Position numbers and translations under genes: made by a program
Notes under the pieces: generated by a model
Told to the model about the DNA's origin: nothing
Database searches by the model: none
The model's input: the letters and a program-made list of their open reading frames with translations, nothing else
Part shown: positions 1,736 through 54,772 of the stretch, in pieces
How positions within the stretch are numbered: position 1 is the first letter of the stretch
Layout of the letters: each line of letters begins with the position of its first letter
Source: an uncultured Gammaproteobacteria bacterium
GTDB taxonomy: Bacteria; Patescibacteriota; Patescibacteriia; UBA1558; GWA2-36-10
DNA length: 64,000 nt
Direction: 5' to 3'
Assembly: GCA_964515785.1 (NCBI GenBank)
Contig: CAZEWH010000002.1
Location: 30,182 to 94,181 of the forward strand

Positions 1736-3757
1736 GTGTTATCTATAAAAAAGATAGCTTTATTTAGCATATTTTCTTTGCTAATAGCTAATATAGCGTA
1801 TGGTTTTTCTCAAGACTATACACCAGAAGATCCAAGTTTATATCATCAGACAGCTTATTTTGATTTGATGAATATAAAACCAAGCTGGTCCAATGATCAT
1901 CAAATAAATAAAGAAATAGTTATAGCTGTTTTAGACTCTGGTGTAGATTTAGATCATCCTGATTTGCTCAACAATCTCTGGAAAAATACTGGAGAAATAC
2001 CAGGCGATGGCATAGACAATGACGAAAATAGTTATATTGATGATATAGATGGCTGGGATTTTATGTCCAGTGACAATAGTCCTGAACCAGATTTGACAGA
2101 AGGATATGACAAAACTGCAGTCAATCATGGTACAGTAGTAGCTGGTATTATTGCAGCTACTGCCAATGATCAAGGTATTGTTGGTATTACTCCTCAAGCC
2201 AAAATAATGCCACTCAAAATTTTGGACGAAACAGGTAAAGGAAATACCTTGGTTTTATCTCAAGCAATTGACTATGCTGTAGAAAATGGTGCTGACATTA
2301 TAAATTTGAGTTTAGTAGGAGATACTTTTACTGAGCATTTAAATGAAGCTATTGCTAATGCTTATAATAATGGTGTGATGATTATTGCTGCTTCTGGTAA
2401 TGAAGATGAAGATGGATTAAATTTAGACATTGATCCGCGTTATCCTGTCTGTGATATAGAAGGTATAAATAGAGTTTTGGGAGTAGCAGCTGTAGATCAA
2501 GATCTAAAACTAACTGAATTTTCAAATTTTGGAAAAGAGTGTATTGATATATCTGCTCCTGGTACTGGTTTTTATTCAACAAATTTTCAAAAAGCTAGTA
2601 CTACAGATTTTCAAACTTATTATTCCAATGGTTGGAATGGTACTTCAGTCGCCGCACCAGTGATTTCTGCAACCGCTGCTCTTATCAAAATGAATTATCC
2701 TGAGCTACGACCTTTTGATATTTATAATATTTTGACAGACAGTACTAAAAGTTTGCAAGCTGCCAATCCTACTCATTATCTTGAGATGGGTACTGGTTTG
2801 ATAGATATTGGTGCAGCTTTAAACTTGGCAAATGATTATGCAAATCAAGCTATTAGGATAGTGGTGGCACCACAAAAGGATCTGGCTCCTGAGATTTTGG
2901 TCATGGATACCAAAGGAAATTTACAGAATTCTTGGCTAGCTTATAGTGAACATTTCAAAGGCGGCGTAAATGTAGCTATAGGTGATGTACATGGAGATGA
3001 TGCTCAAGAGGTTGTTACTGCTCCCAAAAAAGGCGGCGGACCACATATTAGAGTTTTTGATAGTAGGGGCAATATGATTTCAGAATTTTTTGCCTATATG
3101 GCTAGTTTTCATGGAGGAGTCAATATTGCTGTAGCTGATGTAAACAATGACGGTATAGACGAAATTATTACTGCTCCAGGGCCAGGCGGCGGACCACATA
3201 TAAAAGTTTTTGATAAATCTGGTAAAATGTTGACAGAATTTTTTGCTTATAGTGCTAGCTTTGATGGAGGAGTAAATGTAGCCACTGGTGATGTCAACAA
3301 TGACGGTGTTGATGAAATAGTTTTGGCACCTTATAGTAATTATAGCCCACATATAAAAGTTTTTAATAATAAACGTGAACTAAAAGGTAGTTTTATGGCT
3401 TTTGATAGATCTATGACTAGTGGTATAAATATTACTATTGGTGATGTCAACAATGATCAATGGCCAGAGATTGTAGCTACTCCACGTACAGGTCATGCTC
3501 CTGACATAAAATTATTTAGTCTCAAAGGTCGAGACAAAGGAGGATTTTTACCTTATAGTCAATATTTGACAAGTGGTATTGAAATTGTAGCTAGTGATAT
3601 TACTGGTGATGGACGACCAGAGATTATTGCTTTGCCAAACAAAGGCGGAGCTGCTCTACTAAAAGTTTATGATTATAATGGTTTAGAAAAAAATAGTCTT
3701 TATTTACGTAGTCCAGAAGACAAAAATGGTTACAATTTTGGTATCTTAGGTAAATAA
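1736..3757 (+). CDS. Secreted subtilisin-like serine protease (peptidase S8) fused to a C-terminal FG-GAP/beta-propeller repeat region
   Basis: GTG start. Signal peptide (IALFSIFSLLIANIAYG). Catalytic D (VLDSGVDLDHPDL), H (NHGTVVAGIIAA) and S (GTSVAAPVISATAAL) motifs. Six to seven repeats of GGVNVAxGDVNNDGxDEIVxAP...PHIKVFD typical of FG-GAP. Confidence 0.85.
   Translation: MLSIKKIALFSIFSLLIANIAYGFSQDYTPEDPSLYHQTAYFDLMNIKPSWSNDHQINKEIVIAVLDSGVDLDHPDLLNNLWKNTGEIPGDGIDNDENSYIDDIDGWDFMSSDNSPEPDLTEGYDKTAVNHGTVVAGIIAATANDQGIVGITPQAKIMPLKILDETGKGNTLVLSQAIDYAVENGADIINLSLVGDTFTEHLNEAIANAYNNGVMIIAASGNEDEDGLNLDIDPRYPVCDIEGINRVLGVAAVDQDLKLTEFSNFGKECIDISAPGTGFYSTNFQKASTTDFQTYYSNGWNGTSVAAPVISATAALIKMNYPELRPFDIYNILTDSTKSLQAANPTHYLEMGTGLIDIGAALNLANDYANQAIRIVVAPQKDLAPEILVMDTKGNLQNSWLAYSEHFKGGVNVAIGDVHGDDAQEVVTAPKKGGGPHIRVFDSRGNMISEFFAYMASFHGGVNIAVADVNNDGIDEIITAPGPGGGPHIKVFDKSGKMLTEFFAYSASFDGGVNVATGDVNNDGVDEIVLAPYSNYSPHIKVFNNKRELKGSFMAFDRSMTSGINITIGDVNNDQWPEIVATPRTGHAPDIKLFSLKGRDKGGFLPYSQYLTSGIEIVASDITGDGRPEIIALPNKGGAALLKVYDYNGLEKNSLYLRSPEDKNGYNFGILGK
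2918..3686 (+). repeat. Tandem coding repeats (~150 nt unit) of the FG-GAP propeller blades inside the S8 protease gene
   Basis: Near-identical DNA stretches, e.g. ggcggcggaccacatattagagtttttgat (about 3036) and ggcggcggaccacatataaaagtttttgat (about 3186). Protein blades 2 and 3 are >70% identical. Confidence 0.6.
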
Positions 3758-15949: not shown

Positions 15950-16723
15950 TCAAGAGCGCTGACGAGCAGGTACTAGCTTGAGTAGCTTGACCGAGATCAG
16001 CCAGTAGTTGAGTGCACCCCAGACAGCGCCAATAGTAGCGCCGAGTAGAGGATTGATCGTAAAGTAGCCGATAGCCGCACCAATGGCAGCGTCAATGCCG
16101 CAGAGCAGGCGCAGATCCGAGTGGATCAACTTGAAGAGTGTGACAGTGAACTTGACGGCAAACTTGACGAGCAAGATTGTGCCAAAGAAAATGCCACGTG
16201 GCAGTGAGTAGAAAAAGACGCGAAAAGGATTGCTGTATTTGATCATGGCTTTGAATAATTTGGTGGCGCTTTCATCAGCAGTAGCAAACAGACTACCAAA
16301 AAGTTGGCTAAACAATAAAATGATACATGCTATTGAAATAAGCATGGCTTTGAGTGACATAAACTGCGAGGTAGCTGAGACATCAAAGTCAGACATGATA
16401 TAGCCTAAACCGTATAGCCACATGCAGATTACGAGCATAAGCTGCACACCACGCAGGAAGCTACGCCATTCCTTGATCATGAACTTAAAGTACATAATCA
16501 AGCCACCGAGGCTGTATTTCCAGGTTTCGCGTCTGGCCGTGCGCCAGGCAGTCGGAATATTGCGGATGACCTCTGCAGGATCGTAGGCTAAATAGCCGGC
16601 CAATCCGCCAGCTAACAAGCCGATCCACCAGAAATTGGCAGTGAACTGCAGAGCCACCATAGCCCCGATAAAGGCGCCAGCAAAGACTGCTAGCATGACT
16701 TTAATTACGTTTCGTGTGTGCAC
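15950..16723 (-). CDS. Polytopic membrane protein (257 aa), hypothetical, in a compositionally distinct island
   Basis: GTG start preceded by an AAGGAGG SD. About 50% GC (against ~30% for neighbours). At least 6 hydrophobic helices. No recognisable family. Confidence 0.5.
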   Translation of the reverse strand: MHTRNVIKVMLAVFAGAFIGAMVALQFTANFWWIGLLAGGLAGYLAYDPAEVIRNIPTAWRTARRETWKYSLGGLIMYFKFMIKEWRSFLRGVQLMLVICMWLYGLGYIMSDFDVSATSQFMSLKAMLISIACIILLFSQLFGSLFATADESATKLFKAMIKYSNPFRVFFYSLPRGIFFGTILLVKFAVKFTVTLFKLIHSDLRLLCGIDAAIGAAIGYFTINPLLGATIGAVWGALNYWLISVKLLKLVPARQRS

Positions 16724-29981: not shown

Positions 29982-30395
29982 ATGGCACAAAAGAAAACCA
30001 ATAAAGATTATATTCCAGCTGTTGGCAAACGCAAGACTTCTATTGCTCGTGTTCGTCTTTTGCATGACAAAGTCAATAGCATTAAGATAGTTATTAATAA
30101 TAAAGATTATACAGAGTATTTACCATACTTTGAATTACAAAATATTGTCTTAGAGCCTTTGAAAAAAGTAGGTCAAGACAAAGTATCTATTTCTGTCAAA
30201 GTACATGGTGGTGGTCCAAAAGGCCAAGCTGAAGCTATCCGACATGGTATTTCTCGTGCTTTACTCAAACTAGACGAAGAATTACGTCCAACTTTGAAAA
30301 AAGAAGGATTCTTAACTCGCGATGCTCGTCGTAAAGAACGTAAGAAACCAGGTTTGAAAAAAGCCCGCAAAGCCCCACAGTGGAGCAAACGTTAA
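29982..30395 (+). CDS. rpsI: 30S ribosomal protein S9
   Basis: [19 protein letters not shown]...[11 protein letters not shown]-terminus. Confidence 0.95.
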
Positions 30396-30410
30396 ATTTT
30401 TATATAATCA

Positions 30411-30436
30411 AAACCCCAGAGATGGGGTTTTTTGTT
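30411..30436 (+). terminator. Intrinsic terminator of the rplM-rpsI unit (aacccca-gaga-tggggtt + TTTTTT)
   Basis: 7-bp GC stem with a GAGA loop, followed by a T-run. Confidence 0.6.
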
Positions 30437-30439
30437 TTA

Positions 30440-30497
30440 TACCCCCACTGTCCTTCGGACATCTCCCCCTAGATTAGGGGGAGACAGAGAGGGGGTA
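30440..30497. other. GC-rich multi-hairpin element (~58 nt): outer stem taccccc/gggggta enclosing a UUCG-tetraloop hairpin gtccttcggac and a hairpin ctcccccta-gat-tagggggag. Possible small RNA or attachment-site structure.
   Basis: All three stems verified by reverse complement. GC-rich in an AT-rich spacer. Immediately abuts the 22-bp direct repeat. Confidence 0.3.
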
Positions 30498-30513
30498 TTA
30501 TTTTAATAAAAAA
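30492..30513. repeat. Direct repeat copy 1 (ggggtattattttaataaaaaa, 22 nt)
   Basis: Exact 22-mer also present at 30998-31019; overlaps the 3' end of the structured element. Confidence 0.7.
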
Positions 30514-30540
30514 ATCCCTCACACAATTGTGTGAGGGAAA
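30508..30540 (-). terminator. Intrinsic terminator for the minus-strand 107-aa gene (gggttttccctcacacaattgtgtgagggattttttt on minus)
   Basis: Perfect 8-bp stem ccctcaca/tgtgaggg followed by a T-run on the minus strand, directly after the stop at 30545. Confidence 0.6.
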
Positions 30541-30544
30541 ACCC

Positions 30545-30868
30545 TTAGGTTGTTGTAGGGAAGGCGAAGACGCCGATTGTTTGGAAGAGCGCTTCGATGA
30601 TTTCAAAGGGAACTGGTTTCTTTTGACCACTTTCCCAGTCGGGGGTGTACAGCTCTTTGACCTCCAGGGTCACCTCATATGTCGGTAAGGCCGTTTCCTT
30701 GCCGTGGGGTTGCTTATTGGGGTTGCTTTTTGAACTGACGATCTTGATGATATAGCGTTGATGATTTTTTTCAGCAGACTCTGGTTCATGGTATAGATTC
30801 CAATTGCCTTGCAAAAAAACATGAAGATCGTTGAGTTGTGCGACCGAAAGACTGGTTTTTAGCAACAT
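30545..30868 (-). CDS. Hypothetical protein (107 aa from the ATG at 30868; the ORF track extends to a TTG at 30919), cargo of a direct-repeat-flanked mini-island
   Basis: Perfect AGGAGG SD 6 nt upstream of the ATG (MLLKTSLSVAQL...). About 45% GC. Own terminator. No recognisable family. Confidence 0.5.
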   Translation of the reverse strand: MLLKTSLSVAQLNDLHVFLQGNWNLYHEPESAEKNHQRYIIKIVSSKSNPNKQPHGKETALPTYEVTLEVKELYTPDWESGQKKPVPFEIIEALFQTIGVFAFPTTT

Positions 30869-30928
30869 GATTTTCCTCCTGATTACAGGCACCGCCTGCG
30901 GTTGTCTTGGCACCGCCAAGATCAGGTT

Positions 30929-30953
30929 ATGAAGCCTTAAAAAGGCTTCATAG
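30929..30953. other. Perfect hairpin tatgaagcc-ttaaaaa-ggcttcata upstream of the 107-aa gene, next to a ggcaccgcc x2 direct repeat
   Basis: 9-bp perfect inverted repeat. ggcaccgcctgcggttgtcttggcaccgcc sits immediately 5' (plus coordinates 30888-30917). Confidence 0.3.
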
Positions 30954-30997
30954 TATTATATGATACATCTTTTATTATGTCAATTTTGCTAACAGTA

Positions 30998-31019
30998 GGG
31001 GTATTATTTTAATAAAAAA
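30998..31019. repeat. Direct repeat copy 2 (ggggtattattttaataaaaaa, 22 nt)
   Basis: Exact match to 30492-30513. The two copies bracket about 485 bp containing the 107-aa gene. Confidence 0.7.
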
Positions 31020-31066
31020 GAGACCCGTTGATTCGGATCTCAGTTAGGACGGCAGACATGCCAGAC

Positions 31067-31282
31067 CTAAGATTTGAGGAGCTTGAGGAGCTGCTCGCGT
31101 TGGAGATGCGTATTCAGCATGGCAGTGAATGTGGCTAGGAAAATCAGGGCAATTGCCATGAAGGCGATAGTCAGCCAGAGATTGACGTCATTTTGCATAT
31201 CCATCCAGACGTCCAGTTGTATGATCGCCATGAAGACGAAAAATAGAAAAGCGAATATCACGATGGTCATGTTGGCTTTCAT
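31067..31282 (-). CDS. Small 2-TM membrane protein (71 aa from the SD-preceded ATG; the track starts at 31303)
   Basis: GGGAGGG SD 5 nt upstream of the ATG (MKANMTIVIFAFLFF...). Two hydrophobic helices. Higher GC. Confidence 0.45.
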   Translation of the reverse strand: MKANMTIVIFAFLFFVFMAIIQLDVWMDMQNDVNLWLTIAFMAIALIFLATFTAMLNTHLQREQLLKLLKS

Positions 31283-31406
31283 TTTTGCCCTCCCACGGGC
31301 CATTAGAATTGAAGAACGGATGAATTATTCTATAATAGCACATATTTAGTGTTTTGTCAATAGTAGTAAACTATTATTTTATAGGCTATTTTGCTATAAT
31401 TAGAGC

Positions 31407-32846
31407 ATGGTTACAGCTCGTAGGATCACTGCAAATACCTCATTTTTTATGGTAGCTTTGATATTTCAAAAGCTGCTATCTTTTGTTTATTTCACTATTT
31501 TGGCAAGATCTTTAGGAGCAGAAGGGATTGGTCAATACTTTTTTGCTATTTCGTTTGCTACTATGTTTTCAGTATTGATAGATCTAGGATTGTCGCCAGT
31601 TTTGATCAGAGAAGTATCTAAAGATGAAGGAAACGGCCAGCGTTGGTTTTCTCAAGTATTTACTCTAAAAATATGGCTAGCTTTAGGTACTGCTTTGCTG
31701 ATGATAATTTTAAACTCCTGGCTTTTTTATAGTGATGCAGTTAGAAATTTAATATATCTTACTACTTTAATAATTATAATAGACAGTTTTACTTTATTAT
31801 TTTATGCTTATATTCGAGGACGACAAAGCCTCAAATTTGAATCATGGGGTGTAATAATTTTTCAAATCATTGTCTTAGCAATGGGTCTAGGCCTGTTGCA
31901 GGTTACTAAAAATATTTTTGTTTTATTAACTGTCTTATTAGTAGCCAGTGCTTTCAACATGTTTTTTTCTGGCTTTATTTTAAGACTCAAATACAAAGTT
32001 AAGTTCAAATTATTTTATTCCAAAGAGTTTGTCAAAAAAATATTTATTATTACCTTACCCTTTGCTTTATCAGCTATCTTTGCTAGAGTCTATGGCTATA
32101 TAGATACTTTTATGCTCAAAATGTTTTTAGGTGATGCTCAGGTAGGATTTTATGGAGTAGCTTATAAGGTGACTTTTGCTTTACAGTTTATACCATTGGC
32201 TTTTGTAGCAGCTCTGTATCCAGCTTTTTCCAACTTTTTCAAAGAAAAAAGTGCAAAACTTGAAAGTACTTTTGTAAAATCATTTAATTATTTGTCTTTT
32301 ATTGCTATACCAGTCACCTTTGGTGTGATTGCTCTAGCCAATGAAGTGGTTTCCAAGCTTTATACTTCTGAATTTAGTATGTCTATTTTCCCATTACAAG
32401 TTTTGATTGCTAGTATTCCGTTTTTGTTTGTAAATTTTTCTTTATCTAGTTTTTTGAATGCCACTAATAGACAAAAAATAAATACTCGCAATCTTGGTAT
32501 TATTATGGTCTTTAATATTATTTTAAATTTAATATTAATTCCAAAATTAGGCGTTTGGGGGGCTAGTTTATCTTCTACTATTAGTACTGTATTGTTATTT
32601 ACTATGAACTTAAAAGCTGTCTTAAATATAGTAAAACTCAAATCTAGAATGTTTAAGCCACTGATAGGCACTATTTTGTCTAGTATTATTATGTTTTTGC
32701 TAGTATTTTGGGTCAAAGATTATATTCATTGGACATTAGCTATGTTAGTTGGTATTGTAATTTATTTTGTATTAATGCTGATTACTAAGACACTCAAAAA
32801 AGAAGATATATTATTTGTAAAAAATTCTGTATTTAAAGCCCAATAA
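31407..32846 (+). CDS. Polysaccharide biosynthesis protein / oligosaccharide flippase (Wzx-like, MOP superfamily)
   Basis: 479 aa, about 12-14 TM helices, Wzx-type layout. First gene of a GT-rich operon. Confidence 0.7.
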   Translation: MVTARRITANTSFFMVALIFQKLLSFVYFTILARSLGAEGIGQYFFAISFATMFSVLIDLGLSPVLIREVSKDEGNGQRWFSQVFTLKIWLALGTALLMIILNSWLFYSDAVRNLIYLTTLIIIIDSFTLLFYAYIRGRQSLKFESWGVIIFQIIVLAMGLGLLQVTKNIFVLLTVLLVASAFNMFFSGFILRLKYKVKFKLFYSKEFVKKIFIITLPFALSAIFARVYGYIDTFMLKMFLGDAQVGFYGVAYKVTFALQFIPLAFVAALYPAFSNFFKEKSAKLESTFVKSFNYLSFIAIPVTFGVIALANEVVSKLYTSEFSMSIFPLQVLIASIPFLFVNFSLSSFLNATNRQKINTRNLGIIMVFNIILNLILIPKLGVWGASLSSTISTVLLFTMNLKAVLNIVKLKSRMFKPLIGTILSSIIMFLLVFWVKDYIHWTLAMLVGIVIYFVLMLITKTLKKEDILFVKNSVFKAQ

Positions 32847-39188: not shown

Positions 39189-39209
39189 AAACTCCTCGTT
39201 GTGAGGAGT
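39189..39209. terminator. Hairpin aactcctc-gttg-gaggagtt; terminator of the minus-strand small-protein pair and probably also of the + GT operon
   Basis: 8-bp stem with a T-rich tract on the minus side (revcomp of 39170-39188). Confidence 0.5.
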
Positions 39210-39409
39210 TAATACAAAGGCTTTCTGGATATCCATTGCTTTTGGAATAATTTCCAAAATTTTTTGACAGGTTCACCAAATAAGATAACAGCTCCTATGA
39301 TTGGTAATACTATCTTATACATCCACCACAGTGGTTCAAAGAGGAAACTGAGGAACATCAGAAAAAGTAAAGTAGTTATGATCAGGGCTGGCAAGAAGTG
39401 TTTGAACAT
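39209..39409 (-). CDS. Small 2-TM membrane protein (66 aa), hypothetical
   Basis: Hydrophobic helices ALIITTLLFLMFLSFLF and IVLPIIGAVILFG. Higher GC than the core. Confidence 0.45.
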   Translation of the reverse strand: MFKHFLPALIITTLLFLMFLSFLFEPLWWMYKIVLPIIGAVILFGEPVKKFWKLFQKQWISRKPLY

Positions 39410-39412
39410 ATA

Positions 39413-39580
39413 TCAATCCCTTCCAAGTTGAGTAGCCAAATATGGCGGTGTGAATATAATCCCAAGGACTGCTAAGATTATTAAACCAACTACCCAAGTA
39501 GCTAGTATGCCTACAGTTAAGAAGGCAAAAAGACTAGAGATCATAAAGAATGCTTTGAACAGAGACAGTATGGCACGCAT
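39413..39580 (-). CDS. Small 2-TM membrane protein (55 aa); not in the ORF track. Co-transcribed upstream partner of the 66-aa protein.
   Basis: Hand translation gives MRAILSLFKAFFMISSLFAFLTVGILATWVVGLIILAVLGIIFTPPYLATQLGRD. AGGGGGG SD upstream. Its stop lies 3 nt before the next ATG. Confidence 0.4.
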   Translation of the reverse strand: MRAILSLFKAFFMISSLFAFLTVGILATWVVGLIILAVLGIIFTPPYLATQLGRD

Positions 39581-39618
39581 TTTGCCCCCCTTTCAGTGAA
39601 GAGAACTAAGAACAAAAT

Positions 39619-39647
39619 AAGCCTAGCAAGCTATAGATTTTTTGTCA
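39619..39647 (-). promoter_or_regulatory. Candidate promoter TTGACA-N17-TAGGCT for the small-protein pair (minus strand)
   Basis: Exact TTGACA (revcomp of 39642-39647) overlapping the T-run of the upstream terminator; 17-nt spacer. Confidence 0.35.
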
Positions 39648-39680
39648 AAAAAATCCCCCGACCAAGTTTCAGTCGAGGGG
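39648..39680 (-). terminator. Intrinsic terminator of the 141-aa gene (cccctcgac...gtcggggg + TTTTTTT on minus)
   Basis: GC stem with one bulge followed by a 7-nt T-run on the minus strand. Confidence 0.55.
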
Positions 39681-40094
39681 TTTGTATATTCTGCGTAGCC
39701 TAGATATTAGCGCTACGCTAGGAACTTTCTTAGATATTAATTCCCAGTCTTCTAGGGAACAATCACCCAAGTGAAGTAATTCACGAGCAGCTTGCTCGCG
39801 TAATTCTGGTACTAGGTCAATAATACATCTTAAATGTAATTTGATCGGGCAATCTTGTAGAAGAACTAGGGCTGCATCCTTGCGAAAATCTGGAACAGTT
39901 TCGATAATAGCACCGATTTGCCGAAAATTAGGTTTACGCAGCTTTTGATGATGATAGCGGCGCAAAAGCTCTTTGGCAGATTGGCGAGCATGAAATCTGT
40001 TTCCGTAGACCAATTTCTTGAGATAGAAATTGGAGTAAAAGTGGTGTAACCTCCAGTTTTGCCACCAGTCTCGAAGTTTTTCGAGTGTGTACAT
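39669..40094 (-). CDS. Hypothetical basic protein (141 aa)
   Basis: AGGGAG SD 7 nt upstream of the ATG. About 45% GC. No TM segment. Rich in R/H/L. No family recognised. Confidence 0.5.
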   Translation of the reverse strand: MYTLEKLRDWWQNWRLHHFYSNFYLKKLVYGNRFHARQSAKELLRRYHHQKLRKPNFRQIGAIIETVPDFRKDAALVLLQDCPIKLHLRCIIDLVPELREQAARELLHLGDCSLEDWELISKKVPSVALISRLRRIYKPLD

Positions 40095-40243
40095 GGTGAA
40101 CTCCCTATTTGTAGACGAAAAGAATGTGCTAGAGAATACTTATTAGTATATCATATTTATAGCGTTTTGTCAACGTATAGTGTTTTGTGGTTGATTTTTA
40201 GCCCAAAATTAGCTATCATTATTGTATAATTTAATTAGATTTT

Positions 40244-46199: not shown

Positions 46200-47165
46200 A
46201 TGGCTAAAACAAAGCAAAGCAAACAAAAGCATCATCTTCCCCTCTTGGACGAGTTCTTGGAGAATATTCAGTCTAATAACTACTCCCCAGAGACTGTTTA
46301 CAATTATGAACGGGACTTAAATACTTTTGCCAATTTTTTGAACGAAGATATTAAGACAGCTTTTAATAAACTTACTAAGCGATCAATTATAAAGTTTAAG
46401 GCTTACCTCTCCTCTACTTCCAGACGGACAGCCCTACATGAAGCTGGTCAAAGAAAATTATCAAGTTATAGTATCAATAGAATTTTGTCGGCTTTGAGGT
46501 CTTATCTCAAATTTTTGGTTGATATGGATCAACATCCACCTATTACAGCTGATGCAGTCAAGATGCTTAAAACAGAAAAGAAGTATGGTCAGGTACCAGA
46601 GATGACTGAACTTATCAAACTTATAGAAGCACCAAATAAATTTGAAAAAGATTCAAATATAGCTTTACGTAATCGAGCTATGTTAGAAACTTTATTTGCT
46701 ACTGGTATGCGTATTTCTGAATTATTATCTCTCAAGCGTCAGCAACTTGATCAATCTGGTCGGATTTATGTGATGGGTAAAGGTAAAAAACAACGTTTTG
46801 TTTATTTGACTCCTCGCGCTATCAAACATATTTCTGCTTATCTTAAGACTAGACATGATGATTCACCTTTTTTGTTTATTCCTTATCGTGGTCGCAACAA
46901 TGCTAATAAAAACAAAAAAATATCAACTAATTATTTGCAATACAAAATAAAACGCTATCGTGAGTTGTTGTCTATAAATATTCCAATTTCAGCTCACTCT
47001 ATTAGACATAGTTTTGCTACTTATTTGGCAGAGTCAGGTGCTAATCCAGCTGCTATCCAGATTTTACTTGGTCACGAGTCTTTGGATACTACCACTCGTT
47101 ATGTACATGCTTCTGATAGATATGCAGAAAAAAGTCATACTAAATATCATCCACTTAAATCATAA
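46200..47165 (+). CDS. Tyrosine site-specific recombinase (XerC/XerD family)
   Basis: R...HxxR...Y catalytic set: RNRAMLETLFATGMRISEL, HSIRHSFATYL, LLGHESLDTTTRYVH. Confidence 0.8.
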   Translation: MAKTKQSKQKHHLPLLDEFLENIQSNNYSPETVYNYERDLNTFANFLNEDIKTAFNKLTKRSIIKFKAYLSSTSRRTALHEAGQRKLSSYSINRILSALRSYLKFLVDMDQHPPITADAVKMLKTEKKYGQVPEMTELIKLIEAPNKFEKDSNIALRNRAMLETLFATGMRISELLSLKRQQLDQSGRIYVMGKGKKQRFVYLTPRAIKHISAYLKTRHDDSPFLFIPYRGRNNANKNKKISTNYLQYKIKRYRELLSINIPISAHSIRHSFATYLAESGANPAAIQILLGHESLDTTTRYVHASDRYAEKSHTKYHPLKS

Positions 47166-54187: not shown

Positions 54188-54216
54188 AAAATATATATAA
54201 TACATTATAACTATAT
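54188..54216 (+). promoter_or_regulatory. Candidate promoter TTGACA-N17-TATAAC for the 147-aa gene
   Basis: Exact TTGACA at 54188-54193, about 45 nt upstream of an AAAAGGAG SD and the ATG at 54264. Confidence 0.35.
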
Positions 54217-54263
54217 TATAAAAAGTACCTTAACTTTATCCTAGTTTCAAAAAGGAGCGCAAT

Positions 54264-54707
54264 ATGGAGGGACCAGTAGTAGTTTTTTGGTTTTTGGTTG
54301 TCAGCGCTATTCTTTGGATAATTTTTGGCGATTTTATAAAATCGAACAAGAAATCCACTTCATCAGTCAAACAGAAGGAGGAGACTGTGAACAGTAATCA
54401 GTTACCGGTTGTGACACCGGACATTTTGCCAGCTCGTCGGTCTATTCTGGATTCGTATGGTTGGAATAATACGCCAACTGTGATATCATCTCCGGAACCA
54501 GAAGCAGTCTTAGCTAGTCATAATCCGCGTATAGCTCTTAAGGTTTTGAAAACTGCTCAGCAGGGTGAGTTTGCTCGCATTACTGCTCTGCAGATGGCTG
54601 GTGTAGCTAGTCAGGCCTTGCTCGTCAATCCACAGGTTCGTGAGATTGAGTTCAATCTCAAAGTTAGTGGTGGCTTTAAAGCCAAGGGCAAGGTGAGGTT
54701 ACGGTGA
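54264..54707 (+). CDS. Hypothetical protein (147 aa) with an N-terminal TM anchor
   Basis: AAAGGAG SD; N-terminal hydrophobic helix (VVFWFLVVSAILWIIFG). About 44% GC. No family recognised. Confidence 0.45.
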   Translation: MEGPVVVFWFLVVSAILWIIFGDFIKSNKKSTSSVKQKEETVNSNQLPVVTPDILPARRSILDSYGWNNTPTVISSPEPEAVLASHNPRIALKVLKTAQQGEFARITALQMAGVASQALLVNPQVREIEFNLKVSGGFKAKGKVRLR

Positions 54708-54731
54708 AATCCATAACCTTTAACCATATAA

Positions 54732-54772
54732 CCCCCTAAGTCGTTGGTATACGTCTAGGGGGTAATTTTTTT
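54732..54772. terminator. Bidirectional intrinsic terminator (cccccta ... taggggg + TAATTTTTTTA)
   Basis: 7-bp GC stem with a long loop then a T-run. Lies between the convergent 147-aa (+) and 86-aa (-) genes. Confidence 0.5.

Follow-up and report, generated by a model that had tools for sequence, protein, structure and literature searches.

A foreign islet of two small gene cassettes with a repeated boundary module downstream of rpsI in a Patescibacteria genome

Introduction

How does a perfect 22-bp direct repeat come to lie on either side of a small gene, directly downstream of a ribosomal protein gene? The locus that raises this question is situated in a stretch of 64,000 nucleotides of contig CAZEWH010000002.1 (termed the window here, i.e. 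the whole of the DNA analysed), which is AT-rich, with 33% GC, and belongs to a genome of the Patescibacteria. Bacteria of the candidate phyla radiation have very small genomes, in which few mobile elements can be recognised. A first-pass annotation pointed to the repeats, to a GC-rich structured element abutting one of them and to the enclosed gene (gene A), and proposed either an integration of the type that duplicates an attachment site (attB) in a transfer RNA (tRNA) or transfer-messenger RNA (tmRNA) gene, or a miniature mobile cassette.

The repeats belong to an islet of foreign DNA of about 930 bp, which carries two self-contained transcription units, cassettes A and B, with copies of a boundary module at its joints. 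The chances are about even that a single reciprocal exchange at this module added the 506-bp cassette A beside cassette B. Other origins for the repeat are weighed below, where the evidence touches them.

Foreign DNA between rpsI and the flippase gene

The plus strand of the region carries, in a row, rpoA, rplQ, rplM and rpsI, followed by a polysaccharide flippase gene and glycosyltransferase genes. The closest genomes are those of Patescibacteria, with RpsI identities of 61-74%; a Candidatus Komeilibacteria metagenome-assembled genome is an example. In two relatives (L010 and L014; L numbers denote the loci compared), rpsI is followed after 184 and 97 nt, respectively, by the orthologous flippase and glycosyltransferase genes. 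What, then, fills the much longer spacer in the window? GC content climbs from about 30% in the flanks to 43-48% between approximately 30430 and 31310 (44-46% for the foreign DNA), the two cassettes being alike (44-45%), and GC at third codon positions (GC3) is 0.52 in gene A and 0.67 in gene B vs 0.20-0.25 in neighbouring host genes. With positions 30439-31371 removed, the remaining spacer aligns with those of L010 and L014, including a conserved flippase promoter, ATTTTGYTATAAT. Because of the deviant GC3, the short spacer in relatives and the alignment of the spacer once the islet is taken out, these ~930 bp are recognised as foreign DNA inserted in the rpsI-flippase spacer of an AT-rich genome. 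The terminator of rpsI is native, as its hairpin, AAAACCCC...GGGGTTTT, is conserved: an equivalent AAA(A)CCCC...GGGGTTTTT follows rpsI in L010, L011, L013 and L014. The neighbours of the islet are ribosomal protein and cell-envelope genes, not phage or prophage, and the islet DNA has no match among phage genomes.

Both foreign genes are complete minus-strand transcription units, with a near-consensus sigma-70 promoter, a strong Shine-Dalgarno (SD) sequence, a small open reading frame (ORF) and an intrinsic terminator (Table 1). Gene A, which has a structured leader of about 85 nt, is the only ORF with coding support between the repeats, and it carries no recombinase domain. The first-pass annotation had read this unit well: the 107-residue gene, its AGGAGG and its terminator are all present, as are the tatgaagcc/ggcttcata hairpin and the two GGCACCGCC boxes, which prove to be the tops of two leader hairpins. 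The second small membrane-protein gene that it placed beyond the right repeat is gene B. Gene B is an orphan.

Table 1. Positions of the islet features and of relevant host genes in the window
Feature	Position	Strand	Remarks
rpsI (ribosomal protein S9)	29982..30395	+	From ORF list; last gene of rpoA-rplQ-rplM-rpsI row; host context; GC3 0.24
Native rpsI intrinsic terminator	30410..30438	+	AAAACCCC-agag-ATGGGGTTTT and T-tract; terminator scan
Multi-hairpin C5/G5 palindromic element	30439..30498		Arms ATACCCCCACTGT / ACAGAGAGGGGGTAT; central hairpin CTCCCCCTA-gat-TAGGGGGAG; mini-hairpin GTCC-TTC-GGAC
22-mer copy 1	30492..30513	-	Reads TTTTTTATTAAAATAATACCCC: gene A terminator T-tract, AT spacer, first C-run of multi-hairpin arm
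Gene A terminator stem-loop	30515..30538	-	TCCCTCACAC-aatt-GTGTGAGGGA; intrinsic
Gene A, 107 aa	30545..30868	-	From ORF list; GC3 0.52
Gene A Shine-Dalgarno AGGAGG	30875..30880	-	Read from sequence
Tandem 5'-leader hairpins, GGC-GGU-GCC tops	30885..30923	-	Contain two GGCACCGCC boxes; second hairpin ends 4-5 nt before SD
First leader hairpin of gene A	30928..30952	-	TATGAAGCCTT-ttt-AAGGCTTCATA; directly after -10 box
Promoter A	30955..30983	-	TTGACA-N17-TATAAT; 12/12 consensus positions
22-mer copy 2 and truncated palindrome arm	30992..31019 (22-mer 30998-31019)	-	Arm ATACCCCTACTGT at 30992-31004
Gene B terminator stem-loop	31020..31041	-	GAGATCCG-aatcaa-CGGGTCTC; intrinsic
Gene B, 71 aa (78 aa from upstream ATG)	31067..31282	-	Predicted two transmembrane segments; GC3 0.67; SD GGAGGG
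Promoter B	31332..31360	-	TTGACA-N17-TATTAT with TG; 11/12 consensus positions
Third, degenerate boundary-module copy	31362..31381	-	TAAAATAATA-GTTTA-CTACT; 2 nt upstream of promoter B -35 box
Flippase (Polysacc_synt/MurJ-like)	31407..32846	+	Host gene directly after rpsI in relatives; GC3 0.235
Tyrosine recombinase, 321 aa, XerC/D-type	46200..47162	+	Phage_int_SAM_1 and Phage_integrase

The repeat as a boundary module

The 22-mer, GGGGTATTATTTTAATAAAAAA on the plus strand, is exact in both copies, as first annotated. The copies are 506 bp apart from start to start, with 484 bp between them. No other match exists in the window, even when up to three mismatches are allowed, so that the further copies the earlier reading had thought worth seeking are absent there, and 100 shuffles gave none. 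Nor is it a common promoter or terminator word, the case that had been named as speaking against mobility: it has 0 matches in IMG/VR and 3 unrelated chance matches in JGI metagenome contigs, where neither an empty site nor an alternative junction was seen.

Could the repeat be due to chance, or to a faulty assembly? The genome and the 22-mer are both AT-rich, and sequences with shared k-mers can be joined by short-read assemblers. Not one of the 100 shuffles produced a match, however, and the identical arrangement is present in more than 20 independently assembled contigs, from many samples and four pipelines (ENA, JGI, Logan and NCBI); a contig from a variant strain, with a 12-nt indel in the flippase gene, keeps the same islet. 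Since independent assemblies agree, assembly error is excluded and the repeat is real; chance or artefact can be dismissed for practical purposes.

On the minus strand, the coding strand of both cassettes, each copy of the 22-mer (TTTTTTATTAAAATAATACCCC) begins at the base that follows a terminator stem and consists of TTTTTT (the T-tract), ATTAAAATAATA (an AT spacer and upstream-promoter tract) and CCCC (the start of an arm). Because both copies start there, the repeat is composed of a terminator T-tract and an AT spacer, followed by the opening C-run of the motif ATACCCC-N0-5-CTGT. The T-tract and tail of the gene B terminator are formed by copy 2, which is at the same time 14 nt upstream of the promoter A -35 box. 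The two adjoining terminator stems are completely different, while the repeat is 22/22 identical with sharp edges; similarity runs past it, with CTGT after a 2-nt indel. The arm motif occurs three times in the window vs 0.09 expected, each time 7-16 nt after a terminator T-tract: those of rpsI (plus strand), gene A and gene B (both minus strand). Of these, the copies next to rpsI and gene A form the two arms of the multi-hairpin element, and the one beside gene B is a lone arm that ends where the promoter A region starts.

There is also a third, degenerate copy of the module, next to promoter B. The pattern TAAAATAATA-N3-5-CTACT occurs at just two places in the window, one upstream of promoter A and one upstream of promoter B, with 0 expected. 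Within the third copy, TATTATTTTA aligns with the spacer of L010 and other relatives and is probably native spacer. The 22-mer is accordingly a boundary module common to both cassettes. Each joint of the islet has a copy, which is exact in two cases and degenerate where the islet meets native DNA.

Are these modules sites for a host recombinase? In modules that exploit the Xer system, such as the integrative mobile elements exploiting Xer (IMEX) or the Acinetobacter pdif modules, the 22-mers would be dif-like sites for XerC/D. Among the ORFs scanned, those at 17-50 kb of the window, the sole recombinase is indeed of XerC/D type, though it is 15 kb from the islet; pdif modules are likewise small cassettes that lack a recombinase; and TTATTTTAATA fits, by eye, 8/11 positions of a XerD arm. 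But in a comparison with four dif/pdif sites and with the IUPAC consensus of dif, the scores of the 22-mer sites come only 57th to 4188th in the window, a background level for AT-rich DNA; the real dif of this lineage may differ from the sites compared. The best match of the 22-mer to dif/pdif is 13-17/28, or 19/28 against the IUPAC consensus, and there is no ATAA-N6-TTAT core. A Xer-type origin has only a slight probability.

The multi-hairpin palindrome

The GC-rich element that follows the rpsI terminator folds much as first proposed: on either strand an outer 8-bp stem encloses two inner hairpins. One detail needs correction. The small hairpin had been described as a UUCG tetraloop, but it is GUCC-UUC-GGAC, with a 3-nt loop closed by C-G, rather than a canonical cUUCGg. 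Folding energies are -35.3 and -37.3 kcal/mol for the two strands as RNA (z scores -4.7 and -4.9) and -19.7 kcal/mol as DNA (z score -5.6). The element is situated between two convergent terminators and is overlapped by the 22-mer by 7 nt only.

Does it represent an RNA gene? No Rfam family matches at the gathering score in the whole window, and only noise appears at E<=10 in the region of the element; the phage loci, homologue loci and relatives described below gave nothing. ARAGORN found 0 tRNA or tmRNA genes in the window. No integron core sites (RYYYAAC / GTTRRRY) are present at 30439-30498. As a transposon of the miniature inverted-repeat type, or related to insertion sequences (ISs), the islet was considered and rejected: the only terminal inverted pair (30439-30451 / 30992-31004, 12/13) is formed by the palindrome arms, there is no flanking duplication and no second copy is found in the window.

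The element does have relatives elsewhere. A scan of IMG/VR with the pattern CTCCCCCT-N3-9-AGGGGGAG-N0-20-ACAG returned 54 contigs. In 21 distinct instances from phage contigs, a run of C5 that the pattern did not demand is present just beyond CTGT; the form is CCCCC(ACC|TCT)(C)TGT-CTCCCCCT-loop-AGGGGGAG, flanked by CCCCC..CTGT / ACAG..GGGGG and matched on both strands. These palindromes are often inverted doublets of 110-130 nt, intergenic in head modules of the HK97 or gene-transfer-agent (GTA)-like kind, and some are in contigs of 46-56% GC, immediately 5' of an SD. The inserted mini-hairpin recurs in one instance (L121), with other stem bases (AT-GTCAC-GAA-GTGAC-AG vs AT-GTCC-GAAG-GAC-AG). 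On comparison of these sequences, the multi-hairpin belongs to a widespread C5/G5 palindrome family, absent from Rfam and most like the repetitive extragenic palindromes (REPs) and their inverted doublets (REPINs). Examples among the IMG/VR contigs (L104-L157) are found in L104 at 1437 and 5627, L116 at 2600 and 9689, L121 at 5414, L120 at 1244 and L128 at 1592. Alphaproteobacterial-like copies also have AGTCCGCnGGA in common upstream.

A relaxed scan of 696 kb (the window, 80 rpsI loci and all loci with gene A homologues) gave matches only in the window and in L102/L103. In both settings the palindrome lies 15-18 nt after the T-tract of the terminator of a gene A homologue, in the same orientation. 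The homologue in L102/L103 (P0009) is the most distant member of the family, and L102 has it together with the palindrome and without gene B. Because the palindrome recurs directly 3' of a distant homologue in an unrelated genome, it goes with the cargo and does not belong to the host site; by this linkage it travels with, or is recruited by, the gene A family. The multi-hairpin is a DNA-level intergenic element, neither an RNA gene nor a host attB.

These observations bear directly on the proposal that an integrase drove an insertion into the 3' end of a structured RNA gene and duplicated that end, as in tRNA- and tmRNA-targeting elements. It is true that direct repeats abut a strongly folding element, and that the arm beside copy 2 (ACAGTAGGGGTAT) is complementary at 12/13 positions to the element's left arm, as a displaced original 3' end would be. 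Yet the element matches no tRNA, tmRNA or Rfam family, is flanked by convergent terminators, is GC-rich and foreign, is absent from relatives, and accompanies a gene A homologue in an unrelated genome. The phage-contig palindromes match on both strands, only 7 nt of the repeat are inside the element, and its folding energy is equal with either arm. There is no integrase, the nearest recombinase being the distant XerC/D-type gene, and no empty site with a single repeat; relatives are without the whole islet, structured element included. The attB interpretation therefore fails in its main points and is very improbable.

The gene A family and its leader RNA

What is the cargo? Clustering at 90% identity gave no match to gene A besides itself. 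An exhaustive HMMER search, together with a profile search, revealed a family of eight members, the seven relatives having 25-40% identity, and a local hidden Markov model search over all the loci compared added no further homologues. Comparison of genes A and B and their homologues with Pfam, NCBIfam, PHROGs and PADLOC showed nothing above noise. An AlphaFold2 (AF2) model of the gene A product is alpha/beta, with a pLDDT of 78.6, and has generic fold matches only. Gene A defines an undescribed family of small proteins.

All the relatives are small genes that stand alone, with a promoter and a terminator of their own; the neighbourhood differs from one to the next, and some are bracketed by repeats. 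In L096, the homologue P0006, with its promoter and terminator, is enclosed by direct repeats of at least 86 nt that are 92% identical, with a period of 765 bp (2646-2731 and 3411-3496; the contig ends inside the second repeat). The homologue in L093, the closest to gene A, has inverted repeats of about 70 nt on its two sides (8-75 / 570-656), and a neighbouring single-gene unit has related inverted repeats of 26-41 nt (1370-1403 / 1906-1956). The L093 repeats alternate in orientation along the contig. The L102 cassette has a 16-nt direct repeat, which at 13/16 is too weak to use. In L094 and L095, the gene A homologue adjoins hrcA divergently, with no obvious repeats. To judge from these loci, repeat bracketing of the family is recurrent, with repeats specific to each lineage. 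The MEIK/MQIK subgroup (L094 1180-1210, L095 1118-1150, L102 1613-1642) has a promoter that is conserved through its spacer, TTGAC(A/G)-N-CTTTTT(T)CTG(C/T)T(A)AAAT.

The tandem leader hairpins are also a property of the family. They are conserved in L093 (150-205), L097 (2945-3000), L096 (2935-2990) and L101 (115-172), with GGC-GGU-GCC tops in three members, and the second hairpin ends 0-5 nt before the SD. In the alignment, 93% of cells are paired and 9/15 pairs are changed on both sides; 0/500 shuffles reach this level, and slid controls give 30-48%. The hairpins correspond to no Rfam family, and the leader motif has 0 matches in IMG/VR. The pair is a candidate cis-regulatory leader RNA; because the second hairpin ends so close to the SD, translational control is plausible.

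How did the repeat arise?

Copy 1 of the 22-mer joins the gene A terminator to a complete palindrome, and copy 2 the gene B terminator to a palindrome arm cut off at the promoter A region, within a horizontally acquired islet of two sister cassettes, each autonomous. An exchange between a resident module and the module of a tandem or circular copy, whether by site-specific recombination or through short homology, could produce this arrangement. A circular unit of 506 bp (484 bp and one module) would enter, in the manner of Campbell, at the resident module; unequal exchange between cassette arrays is an alternative route. A single such exchange would necessarily leave a module on both sides of cassette A, and any recombinase would have to act in trans. 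A single reciprocal exchange is favoured because 484 bp and one module between two identical modules is its expected product. It may have taken place in this lineage or in a donor.

Was the 22-mer instead created at insertion, as a target-site duplication? A 484-bp piece (30514-30997) would then have been inserted via 22-nt staggered cuts, for instance by an integrase of the Cas1/casposase-like type or by an IS whose duplications are long and variable. Perfect identity and sharp edges are what such an event predicts, and the repeat is a mosaic of palindrome end, native-looking AT core and terminator tail. But the 484-bp insert has no terminal inverted repeats, there is no transposase or casposase nearby, similarity extends past the 22-mer into CTGT, and a third, partial copy precedes promoter B. 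In L096, moreover, the repeats are overlong for a target duplication. This origin is highly doubtful.

A more substantial alternative is that the whole block of ~930 bp was imported at once from one donor, without mobility of single cassettes. The 22-mer would then be a regulatory tract (terminator tail or A+T-rich upstream-promoter sequence) that had been duplicated locally, on the donor side, at an earlier time and has remained identical by chance. The two cassettes are similar in GC, an upstream module is common to both promoters, no population variant lacks cassette A alone, and no recombinase is located nearby. Slow divergence of a duplicated tract, on the other hand, predicts something other than 22/22 identity with sharp edges beside different terminator stems. 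In other genomes, single homologues of gene A have repeats on both sides, gene A is accompanied by the palindrome without gene B in L102, and the GC3 values of A and B are unequal. En-bloc import is a possibility to be kept in mind, if on balance an unlikely one.

Several results weigh against the single exchange. Neither an empty site for cassette A alone nor a circle or tandem junction was present in any same-species contig; the single-copy site that the first-pass annotation looked to relatives to provide is missing, as same-species contigs carry both copies and relatives lack the whole islet. The islet contains no recombinase, and the sole one among the ORFs scanned is of XerC/D type and distant. 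Full copies of the module or palindrome elsewhere in the window are also lacking, and ongoing mobility is unsupported. The repeats that bracket homologues in other genomes are lineage-specific and unrelated in sequence to the 22-mer. With the copy-2 arm substituted for the copy-1 arm, the folding energy of the palindrome shifts only from -19.7 to -19.5 kcal/mol, and either arm may be the original. Finally, both cassettes could have come together from a donor that already held the repeat. Of the proposed integration footprint or mobile cassette, then, the foreign insertion and a small cargo family with repeat-bracketed, self-contained members have stood, whereas the empty site, the circle and the integrase have not been found. 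The miniature cassette interpretation is plausible but unproven.

Comparison with known systems

Which known elements does the islet resemble? A literature search by sequence words returned irrelevant matches only, and comparison was made with systems of similar architecture. Integron cassettes are likewise single-gene units of about 0.5 kb, arranged head to tail with a repeated boundary and with the recombinase outside the cassette; the 58-nt imperfect palindrome at the cassette 3' end, which folds as a single strand, recalls attC. The islet, however, lacks the R''/R' core sites (RYYYAAC / GTTRRRY); there is no IntI, attI or Pc nearby, and no intI among the ORFs scanned. Its cassettes have their own promoters and terminators, whereas integron cassettes are promoterless and expressed from Pc. 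Complete attC sites persist in integron arrays, but the upstream boundary in the islet has just a truncated arm.

With integrative elements that target tRNA and tmRNA genes the islet shares direct repeats that flank foreign DNA, one of which abuts a structured element. It differs in that this element is foreign and no RNA gene, that no integrase is present and that the repeat is mostly terminator tail.

REP/REPIN sequences (also bacterial interspersed mosaic elements, BIMEs) are short, imperfect, GC-rich palindromes made up of two arms in inverted orientation, which occupy intergenic positions directly behind terminators and between convergent genes. All of this applies to the multi-hairpin, whose relatives form inverted doublets in other genomes. 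In contrast to REPs, it is represented by one complete copy and one arm in 64 kb, with no conserved GTAG, and in two unrelated genomes it goes with one and the same protein family. No REP-associated tyrosine transposase (RAYT) turned up, although no search was aimed at one.

Phage morons also have their own strong promoter and terminator, deviant GC, an orientation opposite to that of their neighbours and small ORFs of unknown function. But the cassettes lie outside any prophage and have no phage DNA or protein match, and flanking direct repeats are no defining trait of morons. The pdif modules of Acinetobacter and IMEX are similar as small recombinase-less cassettes with short repeated bounding sites and a presumed host recombinase; they differ since the 22-mer is not dif-like above background and the sites at the edges of pdif modules are XerC/D and XerD/C sites in inverted orientation.

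Other small units in the window and in related loci

Pfam Ribosomal_S9 is recorded on the gene of L001 that is equivalent to rpsI. In relatives, the slot between rpsI and the flippase gene holds different small genes in L013 and L017, and small genes appear to have landed in this spacer repeatedly. The L013 gene (4610-5104, minus strand) encodes 164 residues, and that of L017 (4638-5225, plus strand, the strand of its neighbours) encodes 195. The end of rpsI (AAGCGTTAA or AAACGTTAA) recurs 40-130 nt downstream in L013 (4405-4460), L017 (4380-4515) and L010 (4385-4490). The sequence between these rpsI-end repeats differs in each of the three, folds without significance and matches no Rfam family. 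They could be small insertions at the rpsI stop codon.

The window has other GC-rich ORFs, at 15950-16723, 39190-40173, 347-970 and 1148-1459 on the minus strand and at 54190-54770 on the plus strand. GC3 in these five is 0.38-0.61 vs ~0.22 in the host; one product is a TonB_C protein, and three are oriented against the surrounding operons. The units at 15950-16723, 39190-40173 and 54190-54770 have their own TTGACA-N17-TATAAT-like promoter, a strong SD and a G/C-run terminator. In all, at least four GC-rich units of the window besides those of the islet have promoter- and terminator-like sequences of their own or a deviant orientation. Small foreign units look like a recurrent feature of the host genome. 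The promoter of a minus-strand unit of 141 residues (TTGACAAAACGCTATAAATATGATATACT, 40145-40173) is similar to promoter B (TTGACAAAACACTAAATATGTGCTATTAT, 31332-31360) through the spacer, which hints at sister cassettes or a shared operator.

Implications

The locus is a modest but real footprint of gene-cassette accretion; cassettes with boundary repeats are already a known kind. A broader proposal, speculative and on present evidence improbable, is that self-expressed cassettes of about 0.5 kb, each with promoter, leader, small ORF and terminator, are exchanged as circles among Patescibacteria and perhaps other bacteria, integrate at the C5/G5 palindrome or the boundary module with the help of a trans recombinase, and have the 107-residue family as one recurrent passenger. 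On this proposal, proteins of the family might bind either the GGCGGUGCC hairpins of their own leaders or the palindrome.

What would the islet mean for the biology of these bacteria? There are two by-products: an undescribed protein family with covarying leader hairpins near the SD, which may be an autoregulatory RNA, and a C5/G5 palindrome family outside Rfam. If the block arrived whole, the locus is simply an ordinary islet acquired by horizontal transfer. Should the module be a true site of recombination, it would represent a minimal cassette system that works without a linked recombinase, and if circles are exchanged, an integron-like cassette system without the integron platform. For gene acquisition in the candidate phyla radiation, the locus shows a concrete route, by which self-contained foreign units are stacked head to tail in a neutral spacer, with a shared boundary module and a conserved palindrome marking the joints.

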